In this document: positions 10,679 through 36,727 of the stretch, in pieces | How the letters are laid out: each line of letters opens with the position of its first letter | Position numbering within the stretch: position 1 is the stretch's first letter | Translations under genes and position numbers: made by a program | Virus record (IMG/VR): IMGVR_UViG_3300032116_000067 | Span: 36,265-100,264 of that record | Length of the DNA: 64,000 nt | Source of the DNA: a virus | Strand: one strand, 5' to 3' | Notes under the pieces: generated by a model | Told to the model about the DNA's origin: nothing | Database searches by the model: none | What the model saw: the letters and a program-made list of their open reading frames with translations, nothing else

Positions 10679-10900
10679 ATGGAAGCAATATTTGTTAGTA
10701 ATGGGGAAACCCAGTTAATACTATCTCCCGAAGACGAGCTGGAACGAATGTTACTTAATAAACTCCTGAACTCCGGCCCTGTTGAGTTTCAGTTGATTAG
10801 TCAACCTGTTGGTGTACTAGGTAAGTCTGTTAAAGATGCAATGATCATCAGACCTAAAACAAACTACGTAAGTGATACAGACAAAACTGAAACTTTGTAA
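10679..10900 (+). CDS. hypothetical protein
   Basis: 73-aa ORF in operon. Confidence 0.7.
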   Translation: MEAIFVSNGETQLILSPEDELERMLLNKLLNSGPVEFQLISQPVGVLGKSVKDAMIIRPKTNYVSDTDKTETL

Positions 10901-11261
10901 TGGTTGCAAGGAGCTCAAACACATCTGGAAGAGCCATGAAAAAGCGAAGTATTGCAAAGAGTGTTGGTATAAGATAGAAAAACCAAAGAAACTCAAGCCC
11001 GTGTCTGCTAAACAAAAAACAGCACTGGACGAGTACAGCAAGAAACGCATGCTCTTTTTGATAGCCAATCCAGTATGTCAGGCTAAACTGGTCGGATGTA
11101 CTGGGGAGGCTACCGATGTGCACCACACAGCAGGTCGTGTAGGAGATAATTATCTAAACATGTCTAAGTGGAGAGCTCTGTGTCGTAACTGTCATACCTG
11201 GGCTGAGAATAATCCAGAAGAAGCTAAAGAATTAGGACTATCAGAAAACCGATTAACATGA
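10872..11261 (+). CDS. HNH-type nuclease with zinc-finger motifs
   Basis: CNGC/CKEC; C..C..ATDVHH...N...LCRNCH pattern. Confidence 0.75.
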   Translation: MIQTKLKLCNGCKELKHIWKSHEKAKYCKECWYKIEKPKKLKPVSAKQKTALDEYSKKRMLFLIANPVCQAKLVGCTGEATDVHHTAGRVGDNYLNMSKWRALCRNCHTWAENNPEEAKELGLSENRLT

Positions 11262-11578
11262 ACGTTACAGAGAATACTACCCAGGAGATCGTAAACGCCT
11301 ATACCCGGGACATCAATGACTGGTTAGCTCGTAATAACTATACAGCTAATGCATTTGTTAAGGTACAGATACTGAATCTATTGTTGGGAAGAGACAGACG
11401 TCTTCTTTGCAACAGTGCGTTTGTAGAAGCTGTATTGAAAAATGATCTGCAACGTACCATAGGTTATGCAGACAAAGAGACCATGGCTAACCTTAAGCTG
11501 ATCTATCAGGCGTATTACAACATTGATCCTCCGGTAGAAACCTGGACTCCTGTAAAGAAAGAAAGATTTGAATGGTAA
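11258..11578 (+). CDS. hypothetical protein
   Basis: 106-aa ORF, ATGA coupling. Confidence 0.75.
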   Translation: MNVTENTTQEIVNAYTRDINDWLARNNYTANAFVKVQILNLLLGRDRRLLCNSAFVEAVLKNDLQRTIGYADKETMANLKLIYQAYYNIDPPVETWTPVKKERFEW

Positions 11579-11581
11579 GCT

Positions 11582-11692
11582 ATGAGTAAACGTAATGAGA
11601 TCCAGGATCAAGCCCTGGAGATAGCCTTCAGGCATCAACGCTGTGGCTTGGGTATCTCGATGGGTTTGTTTGTAAAAGTTCTACAATATTAG
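11582..11692 (+). pseudogene. orphaned original 5' end of the SF2 helicase gene
   Basis: MSKRNEIQDQALEIAFRHQRCGLGISMG aligns with the N-terminus of 12349-13491 up to the Walker A Gly. Confidence 0.85.
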
Positions 11693-12441
11693 TATATTAT
11701 ATTATAGAACAAATCTAAACCCTATGAAAATTCCAAGGTCTTTTGGTTTAAAAACTTGTGGTATATACTGTATAACTAATACTAGTAACAAAAAACAGTA
11801 TATCGGTAGTAGTAAAAATATATACCATAGGTTAAAACGGCATCAGTCAGAGCTGCGACGAGGTATTCATGCCAACCCGCATCTTCAAAACAGTTATAAT
11901 AAGCATGGTAAAAACTGCTTTGAGGTCTCAATTCTTGAAGAAGTTCCTGTAGAACTTTTAGTCCAAAAAGAACAGGAGTATATTAATAATCTAGAACCAG
12001 CATATAATATCACACTAGAAGTTATTAGAAATACTCCTTCTCAAGAGTCTAGAAGAAAAATCTCAGCTACTCTAAAACAGCAAAAGTTAATGGGTTTATT
12101 AAAATATCCTACGCATGATGATAAAAAAAAACCAGTGACAATATACGATATAGACTGTAACTGTTTTGGAACTTATGAATCTGAGCGGGCTGCTGCTAAA
12201 AAGTTAGAAGAGCTTTATCCCGGGCTAAAGTACTCTCAATCCGTAGTCAACAGTACTATAAACTTAAAAAACAAAAGAGTAGTTAGTAGATATAAAAGGC
12301 ATTTCTTGCTTAGACCTGAACAGAAATGTATTACTAAAAAAGAGCTATGTGAAACAAAAAAATACAAGAGACAGTATACAAGCTGATGCTATAGAAGTTG
12401 CTTTAAATCACAAATGTTGTTCGTTAGCCTTAAGCATGGGG
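11666..12441 (+). mobile_element. AT-rich homing-endonuclease insertion within the helicase Walker A codons
   Basis: Bounded by ATGGG on both sides; lower GC; carries endonuclease plus a divergent copy of the helicase 5' end. Confidence 0.8.
11724..12386 (+). CDS. GIY-YIG homing endonuclease with NUMOD-like C-terminal modules
   Basis: CGIYCITN...YIGSS..I..RL..H; later E and YN motifs; KKPVTIYD...YES.R.AA NUMOD1-like segment. Confidence 0.92.
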   Translation: MKIPRSFGLKTCGIYCITNTSNKKQYIGSSKNIYHRLKRHQSELRRGIHANPHLQNSYNKHGKNCFEVSILEEVPVELLVQKEQEYINNLEPAYNITLEVIRNTPSQESRRKISATLKQQKLMGLLKYPTHDDKKKPVTIYDIDCNCFGTYESERAAAKKLEELYPGLKYSQSVVNSTINLKNKRVVSRYKRHFLLRPEQKCITKKELCETKKYKRQYTS

Positions 12442-13491
12442 GTCGGTAAAACCCTCATCGGACTACGATACTTGGACCATTACCAGCAGTCTAACATGTA
12501 CAAGCTCAATGTGCTGGTAGTGGCTCCAAAGCTCAGCATATTTCAGAGCTGGCAAGATGACGCAGTAAAGTTTGGCCTTCCCCAGGAACTCCTGGAGAAG
12601 GTCACCTTTACCACGTATCTATCACTAAACAAACATAACCCGCATCACTATGACATAGTGGTGTTGGACGAGTGTCACAGTCTTTTAGAGTCCCATCAAA
12701 CTTTCCTGGCTAACTACCACGGTAGAGTACTGGGTCTGACGGGTACTCCGCCCCGGTATCACAACAGTGAAAAAGGCAGGATCGTCGGTAAGTACTGTCC
12801 TGTGATGTTTAAGTACATCACCGATGACGCGGTAGATGATCAGATCCTGAATGATTACCGGATCATCGTACACCGGATGCCATTAAGTACCCAGAATACG
12901 ATACCGGTAACTATGAAGAACAGTACGTTCATGACCTCTGAGCGTAAAAGCTATGACTACTGGAGCAAACGTATCATGGAAGCCCAGAGTAAAAAGCAGG
13001 AACAGATCTCGTCCGTTATGCGAATGAGGGTCCTGATGGACTTTCGAACCAAAGAAGACTACGCCAAGTATCTACTGGAAGAAATAGAAGAAAAGTGTAT
13101 TGTCTTCTGTAACACCCAAGCCCAGGCAGATCGTGTATGCAGTCACTCGGTACACTCCGAGAACCCAGACGCAGAAGCAAACCTTGACATGTTTAAGAAA
13201 GACCAGATCGACAAGCTATCCTGTGTACTGCAGCTCAACGAGGGTATCAATATTCCAAACCTTCGGGCCGGGATCATTATGCATGCATACGGCAACGAGC
13301 GCAAGAGTTCACAGCGTATCGGACGTCTGCTTCGTCTGAACCCAGACGACACAGCGGTGGTGCACATACTCTGCTACCAGAATACGGTAGACGAGCGGTG
13401 GGTCACGGAAGCTTTAAAAGACCTGGACCAGAACAAGATCAAGTATCACGATGTAAACATGAGTAGTCATGAATCTTCATTTCAACGGTAA
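12349..13491 (+). CDS. superfamily 2 (DExH) helicase
   Basis: MGVGKT, DECH, TGT, EGINIP and QRIGRLLR motifs; GTG start inside the endonuclease ORF. Confidence 0.92.
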   Translation: MKQKNTRDSIQADAIEVALNHKCCSLALSMGVGKTLIGLRYLDHYQQSNMYKLNVLVVAPKLSIFQSWQDDAVKFGLPQELLEKVTFTTYLSLNKHNPHHYDIVVLDECHSLLESHQTFLANYHGRVLGLTGTPPRYHNSEKGRIVGKYCPVMFKYITDDAVDDQILNDYRIIVHRMPLSTQNTIPVTMKNSTFMTSERKSYDYWSKRIMEAQSKKQEQISSVMRMRVLMDFRTKEDYAKYLLEEIEEKCIVFCNTQAQADRVCSHSVHSENPDAEANLDMFKKDQIDKLSCVLQLNEGINIPNLRAGIIMHAYGNERKSSQRIGRLLRLNPDDTAVVHILCYQNTVDERWVTEALKDLDQNKIKYHDVNMSSHESSFQR

Positions 13492-35089: not shown

Positions 35090-35344
35090 ATGGCACAAAC
35101 GGCAGTTGAATGGTTCTTTGAAGTATTAGCACACAATGATATTATTGACCACAAAAAACTTTGTGATGATGAAAACCTTTACAATCTATTGTACTCATTG
35201 AAAAACCAAGCAAAACAAATGGAGAAGGAGCAGATAATAAACGACTATAAACATGGTCAAAATAATGGATACATGTATAGGGATGGAGCATCTAATATTA
35301 TTACTGCAGAAGAATATTACAATCAGACTTATGGAAAAGAATAA
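35090..35344 (+). CDS. mini-protein, TAVEW...AKQMEKEQII family, copy 2
   Basis: DNA-level repeats with the next ORF. Confidence 0.8.
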   Translation: MAQTAVEWFFEVLAHNDIIDHKKLCDDENLYNLLYSLKNQAKQMEKEQIINDYKHGQNNGYMYRDGASNIITAEEYYNQTYGKE

Positions 35345-35345
35345 C

Positions 35346-35570
35346 ATGACGGCAGTTGAATGGTTACAAAATGAACTTGTTGGTTTAGACACAGCATTTT
35401 CGTATTGCACGTTTAATGATAAACTCAAACAAGCCAAACAAATGGAGAAAGAGCAGATAATAGATGCTTATATAATGGGTAGCTATGATATGGCATCAAA
35501 GGAATTTAAGCCTGAACAATACTACAACGAAACTTATGGAAAAACAGACAGCAATACAAGAAATGATTGA
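35346..35570 (+). CDS. mini-protein, TAVEW family, copy 3
   Basis: TAVEW...AKQMEKEQII...EQYYNETYG. Confidence 0.8.
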   Translation: MTAVEWLQNELVGLDTAFSYCTFNDKLKQAKQMEKEQIIDAYIMGSYDMASKEFKPEQYYNETYGKTDSNTRND

Positions 35571-35778
35571 TGAATTAGACTATGATTTGAAAGCAAGTGG
35601 AATGTTTGTTAATTGGGAATTTTATTTGCAAAGAGAGAAAGAGCAGATCAAAATAGCTTACAACAAAGGTTACCAGGATGGAGAGATAGATAGTCTTGAT
35701 GCGAGAGACGGGGATGTTGAATTCTTTGAAGACGCAGAACAATACTACAACGAAACATTTCTCAAACTTAAAACTTGA
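35536..35778 (+). CDS. mini-protein, TAVEW family, copy 4
   Basis: QTAI...EKEQI..AY...EQYYNETF; ATG lies in the ETYG codons of copy 3. Confidence 0.8.
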   Translation: MEKQTAIQEMIDELDYDLKASGMFVNWEFYLQREKEQIKIAYNKGYQDGEIDSLDARDGDVEFFEDAEQYYNETFLKLKT

Positions 35779-35781
35779 TAT

Positions 35782-36075
35782 ATGAACAACAAATACATCA
35801 TTGTCAATAAGACAAAGATTCTAGAAGAAATAGAGGAGTTAAAAGCAAGTTTGAATTATATACCTGAGTCTTATGTAGCAAAACATTTAGCTCAAATATA
35901 TGTATATGAGCAGGTGCTTCTTAGATCAACTCCTTTAATTCCTGAAAATGTAAAACCATTACAGGAATTAGTTGATGAAGGATATGACCCTTATGATTCT
36001 GCACATCATTTACAAGTGCAAAAAATGTTAAAGGTAATAGAAAACTACATCTCAAACTTAAAACTTGATATATGA
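35782..36075 (+). CDS. mini-protein MNN.YIIVNKT...STPLIPE...SNLKLDI, copy 1
   Basis: Paralog of 36169-36432. Confidence 0.8.
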   Translation: MNNKYIIVNKTKILEEIEELKASLNYIPESYVAKHLAQIYVYEQVLLRSTPLIPENVKPLQELVDEGYDPYDSAHHLQVQKMLKVIENYISNLKLDI

Positions 36076-36158
36076 ATACAAATATTGAATGTGAAGACGT
36101 ACATAAAGATGATGTGCCAAATGATTATGAAAATAAAAACCTTGTTTGGTGGAATTAA
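36072..36158 (+). CDS. 28-aa micro-ORF between junction repeats
   Basis: MNTNIECEDVHKDDVPNDYENKNLVWWN*. Confidence 0.4.
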   Translation: MNTNIECEDVHKDDVPNDYENKNLVWWN

Positions 36159-36168
36159 AACTTGATAT

Positions 36169-36432
36169 ATGAACAACGAATACATCATTGTAAATAAGAC
36201 TCTTCTTGAGAAAAGAATAGAGGAGTTGGAAGTATTATATAAAAATTCTGAAAAACCAAGTATTCAAGGTACTATATATAATCAACTATCTCTTGAATTA
36301 AAAAAAATTCTATCTCAATCAACTCCTTTAATTCCTGAGATTGAAAAGGCTTTTGATGCTGGAGTACATGAAGATTATTTAGATACAATTGGTAAAGAAG
36401 ATTACTTCTCAAACTTAAAACTTGATATATGA
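36169..36432 (+). CDS. mini-protein MNN.YIIVNKT...SNLKLDI, copy 2
   Basis: Paralog of 35782-36075. Confidence 0.8.
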   Translation: MNNEYIIVNKTLLEKRIEELEVLYKNSEKPSIQGTIYNQLSLELKKILSQSTPLIPEIEKAFDAGVHEDYLDTIGKEDYFSNLKLDI

Positions 36433-36487
36433 AAAACATACATATATTACCAACTTGAGAAAGCAGAACAATATTATAACGAAACAT

Positions 36488-36727
36488 ATGGCACAGTTAA
36501 CAGCAATGAGGTTTCTGATTAATACCTCAGAAAGTATTAAAAACCTGGATCCCAAAGTTCAGCTTATGATCCTACGAGGTGAGATGCAGGCATTACTTCC
36601 TACAGAAGAAAAGCAGATCGTTGATGCTGTCTATGCGGGTATGGAGTCTCATTCTTTTGATCCTAACCGCGGCCGAGCTCAAGAGTACTATAACCAAACT
36701 TACAAGAATGAAGATCCTGCACCTTAG
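36488..36727 (+). CDS. mini-protein, TAVEW-related, copy 5
   Basis: TAM...EEKQIVDA...EYYNQTY. Confidence 0.75.
   Translation: MAQLTAMRFLINTSESIKNLDPKVQLMILRGEMQALLPTEEKQIVDAVYAGMESHSFDPNRGRAQEYYNQTYKNEDPAP

Follow-up and report, generated by a model that had tools for sequence, protein, structure and literature searches.

The helicase gene analysed here lies in a stretch of 64,000 nucleotides (the window; positions 36,265 to 100,264 of the IMG/VR virus record IMGVR_UViG_3300032116_000067). The record comes from a freshwater phage, comprises 100,264 bases and is about 77% complete. On the plus strand of the window the gene begins twice. A first start (11582-11665) encodes 28 native codons, MSKRNEIQDQALEIAFRHQRCGLGISMG, and breaks off after ISMG within the P-loop; its reading frame continues with eight out-of-context codons (LFVKVLQY) and a stop, so that this open reading frame (ORF) spans 11582..11692. 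It is interrupted by an AT-rich cassette of 776 bp (11666..12441), behind which the helicase core follows with 349 codons from VGKT (Walker A, motif I) to the stop (12442..13491). The core belongs to a superfamily 2 (SF2) helicase according to its ResIII and Helicase_C Pfam domains. The insertion point lies inside the Walker A motif, between the ..SMG and the VGKT codons.

The cassette, which is also encoded on the plus strand, consists of three parts. A promoter-like leader of 58 nt (11666..11723) contains a TTGTAAAA box (11670-11677) and a TATATT box (11693-11698) with a spacer of 17 nt. The gene of a GIY-YIG homing endonuclease of 220 aa follows (11724..12386; the short form, see below). 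The third part is a replacement helicase N-terminus of 31 codons (12349..12441), the first 38 nt of which overlap the 3' end of the endonuclease gene in a different frame. The GTG at 12349 opens an ORF of 380 aa, MKQKNTRDSIQADAIEVALNHKCCSLALSMG-VGKT, in which the second helicase start ends with ..CCSLALSMG and runs directly into the VGKT of the core. Over its length the insert has a G+C content of 32.3% in comparison to 42.2% in the window, which places it among the lowest 1.7% of all 776-nt windows. Base 11665 is a T and base 12441 a G, and 58 nt on one side and 55 nt on the other are left outside the endonuclease ORF. Both junctions are bridged by contigs that stem from independent runs, of freshwater as well as wastewater, so the arrangement is no assembly artefact. 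The initial annotation of this DNA had described the broken native start, the AT-rich insert with its promoter-like motif and GIY-YIG ORF, the divergent homologous segment with its overlapping GTG start in frame with VGKT, the T and G at the junctions and the flanks of about 60 nt. All of these statements on the sequence proved to be correct, including their coordinates.

The assignment of the 220-aa ORF is based on the GIY-YIG domain (PF01541, E 1.9e-13) and on its alignment by phmmer with the catalytic domain of I-TevI (1MK0/1LN0, E ~7e-17). Counterparts of the I-TevI residues Y6, Y17, R27, H31, E75 and N90 are all present and invariant in six homologues. In the C-terminal DNA-binding region of this short form only a weak NUMOD1 match is found (E 0.034). 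A long form of 257-268 aa, encoded in the related loci L013 (1361-2164), L033 (2501-3307), L034, L035 and L037, has an extra C-terminal helix-turn-helix of the NUMOD1 type, and in L033 two NUMOD1 stretches can be recognized (E 7e-9). The short form corresponds to the long form with an internal C-terminal deletion of this NUMOD1-type module, by which its end is pushed into the helicase start. The enzyme of L034 is just 49-50% identical to that of the window. When the native site across the insertion point (in L002, an insertion-free relative, ..ATTTCTATGGGG|GTCGGTAAAAC..) was compared with the substitute segments, no consistent pattern was seen for a CNNNG motif in I-TevI style that lies at a fixed distance in the former and is missing in the latter.

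Homologues of the helicase number in the thousands (~3500). Among GenBank phages the locus has no match by blastn, and tblastn finds only distant helicases of Flavobacterium, Cellulophaga and crAss-like phages with at most 31% identity. The closest insertion-free helicases, P0002 to P0006, all comprise 377 aa and begin with a MSKRNEIQ-type start (MSKRNEIQ..GLGISMGVGKT). This is exactly the length obtained when base 11665 is joined to 12442 in the window, a joint which, as the initial annotation had pointed out, restores the ISMG-VGKT sequence. L002 encodes a continuous protein of 377 aa with 92.6% core identity to the window (86% at the nucleotide level, 904/1050 positions, ungapped), and it lacks the cassette, as do most relatives. 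The first start of the window matches the N-terminus of P0003 in 28/28 residues and that of L002 in 27/28. Its 84 nt are identical to L002 at 76 positions (90%), and only one of the eight differences changes an amino acid. Since the divergence of this relic is still that of a working gene start, it points to a recent insertion in the window. In a second carrier, L014, the relic is identical in 27/28 residues to the N-terminus of its insertion-free sister P0098. The replacement N-terminus and the relic of the window share 48% identity over 25 aa.

Further loci were collected from IMG/VR and from JGI metagenomes, for which endonuclease, helicase and a back-translated KQKNTRD pattern (the substitute type of N-terminus) served as queries, and the core identities of the carriers to the window were determined by tblastn. 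A cassette at the same codon boundary is found in at least eleven divergent loci, that is the window and at least ten other divergent phages. Five of these carriers possess a full relic that belongs to their own lineage, and behind it the leader, the endonuclease gene and the substitute N-terminus: L014 (core 73%), L012 (57%), L032 (49%, partial core), L033 (76%) and L034 (57%; its Walker A motif reads LATG|VGKT). These and others share the boundaries of the window cassette.

In other carriers the relic has decayed. L011, L030 and L013 retain six relic codons (LGISMG), which in L030 directly follow a terminator hairpin and have no start codon, and in L035 and L037 about four degenerate codons are left. 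In L028, L022 and L026 the leader and nearly the whole endonuclease gene are deleted, with 22 codons at the 3' end of the latter left over; here the substitute N-terminus is the sole helicase start. L028 has no upstream 'exon' at all and an intact helicase ORF. Where the upstream 'exon' is reduced to six codons without a start or is absent, the substitute N-terminus must therefore be the functional start, and comparison of these loci indicates that it is sufficient for this role. It is open and in frame in 12/12 cassettes.

These states can be followed within one syntenic context behind the same upstream terminator hairpin, where an empty (L120), a chimeric (L121), an invaded (L030) and an endonuclease-lost locus (L028) occur; such a series is what a cycle of homing endonuclease invasion, decay and loss would predict. 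The chimeric N-terminus of L121 (68-157) consists of 22 native codons followed by GLALSMG, where serine is encoded by AGC, as is typical of the substitute segment. Another chimera was noticed in P0002, the nearest relative of the window, with about 20 native codons and then LTLAVSMG. Both chimeras may be traces left by partial co-conversion, or by a recombination of relic with substitute in which the cassette was lost. P0086 and P0090, both with an MGVGKT start, were also considered as another kind of split and discarded; P0090 is merely cut by the contig end.

The decayed relics bear on the possibility that the helicase is a gene in pieces, in which the 36-aa product of 11582..11692 assembles with the downstream protein as in the split nrdA of Aeh1. 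The relic ORF is indeed intact in the window and five other carriers. However, a full N-terminal segment homologous to the relic is already part of the downstream ORF, and the relic itself stops short of the Walker A GKT; in other carriers it is truncated or missing. This makes such an assembly scarcely credible.

The native start would also be used if the insert were an ordinary group I or other self-splicing intron, so that splicing joins 11665 to 12442. The T before the insert and the G at its end fit the group I rules, and introns do invade this helicase gene, since a true one is present in L013. There, a second, unrelated insertion of 1.1 kb (L013:3123-4216) interrupts the helicase gene at motif VI (SQRI|GRLL). 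It matches the group I intron model RF00028 (Intron_gpI) with E 3.9e-8 for the 5' part and 2.5e-4 for the 3' part, encodes a GIY-YIG-like ORF of 316 aa and contains no duplicated coding segment. The helicase gene of L013 accordingly hosts both an intron-borne and an intron-less endonuclease. Although this control was detected in the same permissive mode of the covariance-model scan, no group I match was obtained in 11000-13000 of the window at E <= 10, nor at the gathering score in five other cassette loci. Moreover, just 58 and 55 nt lie outside the endonuclease ORF, and an in-frame paralogue of exon 1 with its own start is not expected inside an intron. The 'exon 1' in L011, L030, L013, L035 and L037 comprises 4-6 codons without a start, and L028 with its intact helicase ORF has none. 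We regard the intron explanation as largely refuted and very improbable. An intein was rejected as well, because a stop follows eight codons after the relic, the endonuclease is encoded in another frame and no Hint/intein domain was found with Pfam.

Mobility of the cassette was studied on a tree of helicase cores (134 rows, sequences from VGKT on). The KQKNTRD-type N-terminus heads the helicases of eight cluster representatives with different core backgrounds and requires nine changes on this tree, and in seven of its eight places a native-type sister adjoins; the cassette is thus polyphyletic. In the pair of P0007 (KQK-type) and P0016 (native-type) the cores are identical in 344/344 residues, with the N-termini swapped exactly at SMG|VGKT. 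In addition, the endonuclease is far more similar between carriers than the helicase core: 90 vs 49% for L032/L011, 93 vs 67% for L011/L030 and 87 vs 59% for L013/L011. As a selfish gene is here more conserved than an essential enzyme, recent and horizontal spread of the cassette is the best explanation of this pattern. The comparisons show that substitute N-terminus and endonuclease move together between unrelated helicase backgrounds.

The same data speak to the possibility that the arrangement is old, vertically inherited and immobile, going back to one ancient duplication with a resident or domesticated nuclease, and that its patchy distribution results from repeated loss alone. In line with this, the short form has lost its C-terminal DNA-binding module, and loss of the endonuclease does occur (L028). 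Nevertheless we consider an immobile arrangement improbable. It does not account for the excess of endonuclease over core similarity, the nine changes on the core tree or the swapped N-termini of P0007 and P0016. The window and L014 have relics that correspond, in each case, to the native N-terminus found in the closest relatives without a cassette, and the relic of the window differs from L002 almost only synonymously, so it was a working gene start until recently. The catalytic residues of the endonuclease are intact.

The leader can be written as TTGTAAAA-N15-TATATT or, equivalently, as TTGTAA-N17-TATATT. Its TTGTAAAA box begins 2-5 nt after the junction, and both this box and the second one (TATnTT) are invariant in 11/11 cassettes, even where the endonuclease has only 46% identity. 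The motif is unique in the 64-kb window, where 0.01 occurrences are expected. A sigma-70-type promoter is matched in 9/12 positions, and the leader of L033, TTTG-N20-TATATTTG, fits the -33/-7 consensus of Bacteroidota promoters, TTTG/TAnnTTTG (PMC2483708). The promoter-like motif proposed in the initial annotation is therefore real, and from its invariance, its uniqueness and the match in L033 the leader is probably a promoter, which would serve both the endonuclease and the helicase. Every form has an overlap between the helicase start and the 3' end of the endonuclease gene, of 38 nt in the short and of about 11-14 nt in the long one, which suggests that translation of the two genes may be coupled. 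A +1 frameshift on an A-run that would fuse both proteins was considered and rejected, as L030 and L012 have not conserved the run.

It was also noticed that the beginning of the leader, GTTTGTAAAAGT (11670-11681), resembles the native sequence GTCGGTAAAACC to the right of the junction (12442-12453). Tested against shuffles, the similarity of GTTTGTAAAAGT to the native GTNGGTAAAACN is weak, with 5-9/12 matches and p values of 0.007-0.9 per locus, and it was not used as evidence. GTTTGTAAAAGT could have originated as a duplicate of the Walker A codons, now degenerate and reused as -35 box or operator.

Taken together, we consider it very likely that 11666-12441 is a free-standing, intron-less homing-endonuclease cassette which carries a leader, an I-TevI-like GIY-YIG gene and a divergent copy of the first ~30 helicase codons. 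The helicase would then be made from the second start (380 aa), and the 28-codon start would be a non-functional relic. This agrees with the initial annotation, which had proposed a splicing-free element that brings a substitute N-terminus for the helicase and leaves the native start behind; the lack of a group I match, the carriers with a startless or absent exon, the polyphyly, the swapped N-termini and the invariant leader motif support it.

From established homing biology one would expect the enzyme to cleave helicase alleles devoid of the cassette, close to their Walker A codons, in co-infected cells, and the break to be repaired by copying from the cassette-bearing genome. The conserved VGKTLIGL region would provide homology on the right-hand side, and relic and upstream genes on the left-hand side, therefore recipients would keep their own N-terminus as a new relic. 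In the founding event the repair was probably one-sided and illegitimate. Carriers would be spared by the enzyme, since the full native site is restored at neither junction, and the leader would drive or supplement transcription of endonuclease and helicase.

Several observations weigh against this interpretation or restrict it. Use of the GTG start and absence of splicing are predicted from comparison and from a negative covariance-model search. Neither a joint across the cassette nor a cassette-free form of this very phage was seen in the contigs of four runs. The ratio of nonsynonymous to synonymous changes (dN/dS) on the 18 non-overlapping substitute codons is mostly < 1 and noisy. The short-form endonuclease, which is devoid of the second NUMOD1-type module, could be weakened. 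Finally, in short-form substitute segments the serine codon is changed from TCN to AGY, but in L033, a long-form locus, the 12 nt of the substitute segment that adjoin the junction hardly differ from the native sequence, so a destruction of the site by recoding is not general.

One may go further and see in these loci a distinct and widespread class of phage 'gene-start replacement' cassettes. Such elements would colonise catalytic motifs of essential genes and need no intron, intein or gene splitting, because they carry their own promoter and a substitute 5' coding end. The TTGTAAAA box would be both -35 element and a target-derived operator, by which the endonuclease would regulate itself and the helicase in the way I-TevI acts at its own promoter. 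We put this generalisation forward tentatively and think it rather unlikely to hold in full; if the operator is real, a phage replication helicase would depend on a selfish element.

In the vicinity of the helicase, a gene of 106 aa (11258..11578, plus strand) ends with its stop 3 nt before the relic start. It is kept in the insertion-free L002 with 86% nucleotide identity. Two genes upstream of the helicase an ORF of 129 aa rich in Cys and His (10872-11261; CxxC .. HH .. CxxCH, HNH-like) was noticed, which has no Pfam match at E <= 0.01. As it is kept in most relatives, this ORF is probably resident and not mobile. An additional ORF of 144 aa, hydrophobic at its N-terminus, separates the 106-aa gene from the helicase in L002 (L002:3537-3971) and is missing in the window; the space just upstream of the helicase is therefore variable. 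Elsewhere in the window, an AT-rich run at 35090-36727 contains six small ORFs of 84-105 aa, four of which end with (E/Q)YYN(E/Q)T(Y/F) and two with SNLKLDI, and which look like a tandem gene family. Of the AT-rich patches at ~5.0-5.6 kb, 34.8-36.1 kb and 46.7-47.2 kb of the window, none is an endonuclease gene.

Homing endonucleases are generally assumed to survive in essential genes mainly by means of self-splicing introns or inteins and rarely by gene splitting. The locus described here and its relatives would represent a further solution found by phages, in which the gene is restored at the DNA level by a spare start and probably a promoter too. The relatives form a natural series of empty site, fresh insertion with intact relic, truncated relic, lost endonuclease and chimeric N-termini. 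Because this series covers the whole cycle, homing and its footprints become directly testable in one gene family. There is also a consequence for annotation, as a short ORF called at such loci is spurious and the annotated helicase bears a foreign N-terminus, and the first 30 residues of these helicases have a history different from that of the rest of the protein.

In full-text literature searches of limited scope we found no description of a start-replacing cassette in phages, which is not a proof of novelty. Several known systems share part of its features. With group I introns of the T4 td/I-TevI type the cassette has in common a conserved motif as target, a GIY-YIG nuclease and a precise, recurrent insertion at one codon boundary. 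It differs in that no ribozyme core was detected and that function would be restored at the level of DNA and translation by a duplicated coding segment. Endonuclease-split genes are known from nrdA/mobE of Aeh1, from the T4 genes 39/60 with mobA and from gene 43 of phage 25 (PMC2988022, PMC10448857). In these cases both halves are translated and reassemble, whereas the upstream piece left by the cassette is made superfluous by the complete replacement that the element brings along, and it decays.

The free-standing seg and mob endonucleases of T4-like phages are capable of intronless homing with co-conversion of flanking markers, and one-sided illegitimate break repair has been documented for T4 intron homing as a route to new sites (PMC2988022). 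They resemble the cassette in their I-TevI-like GIY-YIG domain and their patchy distribution, and perhaps in NUMOD-type DNA-binding modules. In both cases essential genes are the neighbours of the endonuclease gene, on one side or on both, and target sequence from the flanks is inherited along with it. However, seg and mob genes are intergenic or split a gene into two working polypeptides, and a displaced gene start together with a donated substitute is not among the cases described (PMC2988022).

The nearest known systems are the mobile ORFs (mORFs) of fungal mitochondria, in which a foreign C-terminal piece is fused in frame to the resident gene and the native C-terminus is left downstream. 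They were first seen in atp6 of Allomyces macrogynus, and further examples are atp6, atp9, cox2 and nad3 of Glomus, atp9 of Rhizopus and cox2 of Mortierella (PMC3630166). In both systems a free-standing gene, of the GIY-YIG or LAGLIDADG type in mORFs, moves together with a diverged duplicate of one end of its target gene, and this duplicate is fused in frame to the resident core. The displaced native end stays alongside and matches close relatives, and splicing is not needed. The mORFs replace the 3' (C-terminal) end of an organelle gene, while the phage cassette replaces the 5' end of a bacteriophage replication gene and is inserted inside a catalytic motif (Walker A). As it is the 5' end that is replaced, the element must supply a start codon; it also has a promoter-like leader, and its endonuclease lies upstream of the donated segment. 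In its organization the present cassette thus looks like the mirror image of an mORF, acting at the 5' end of a phage gene.

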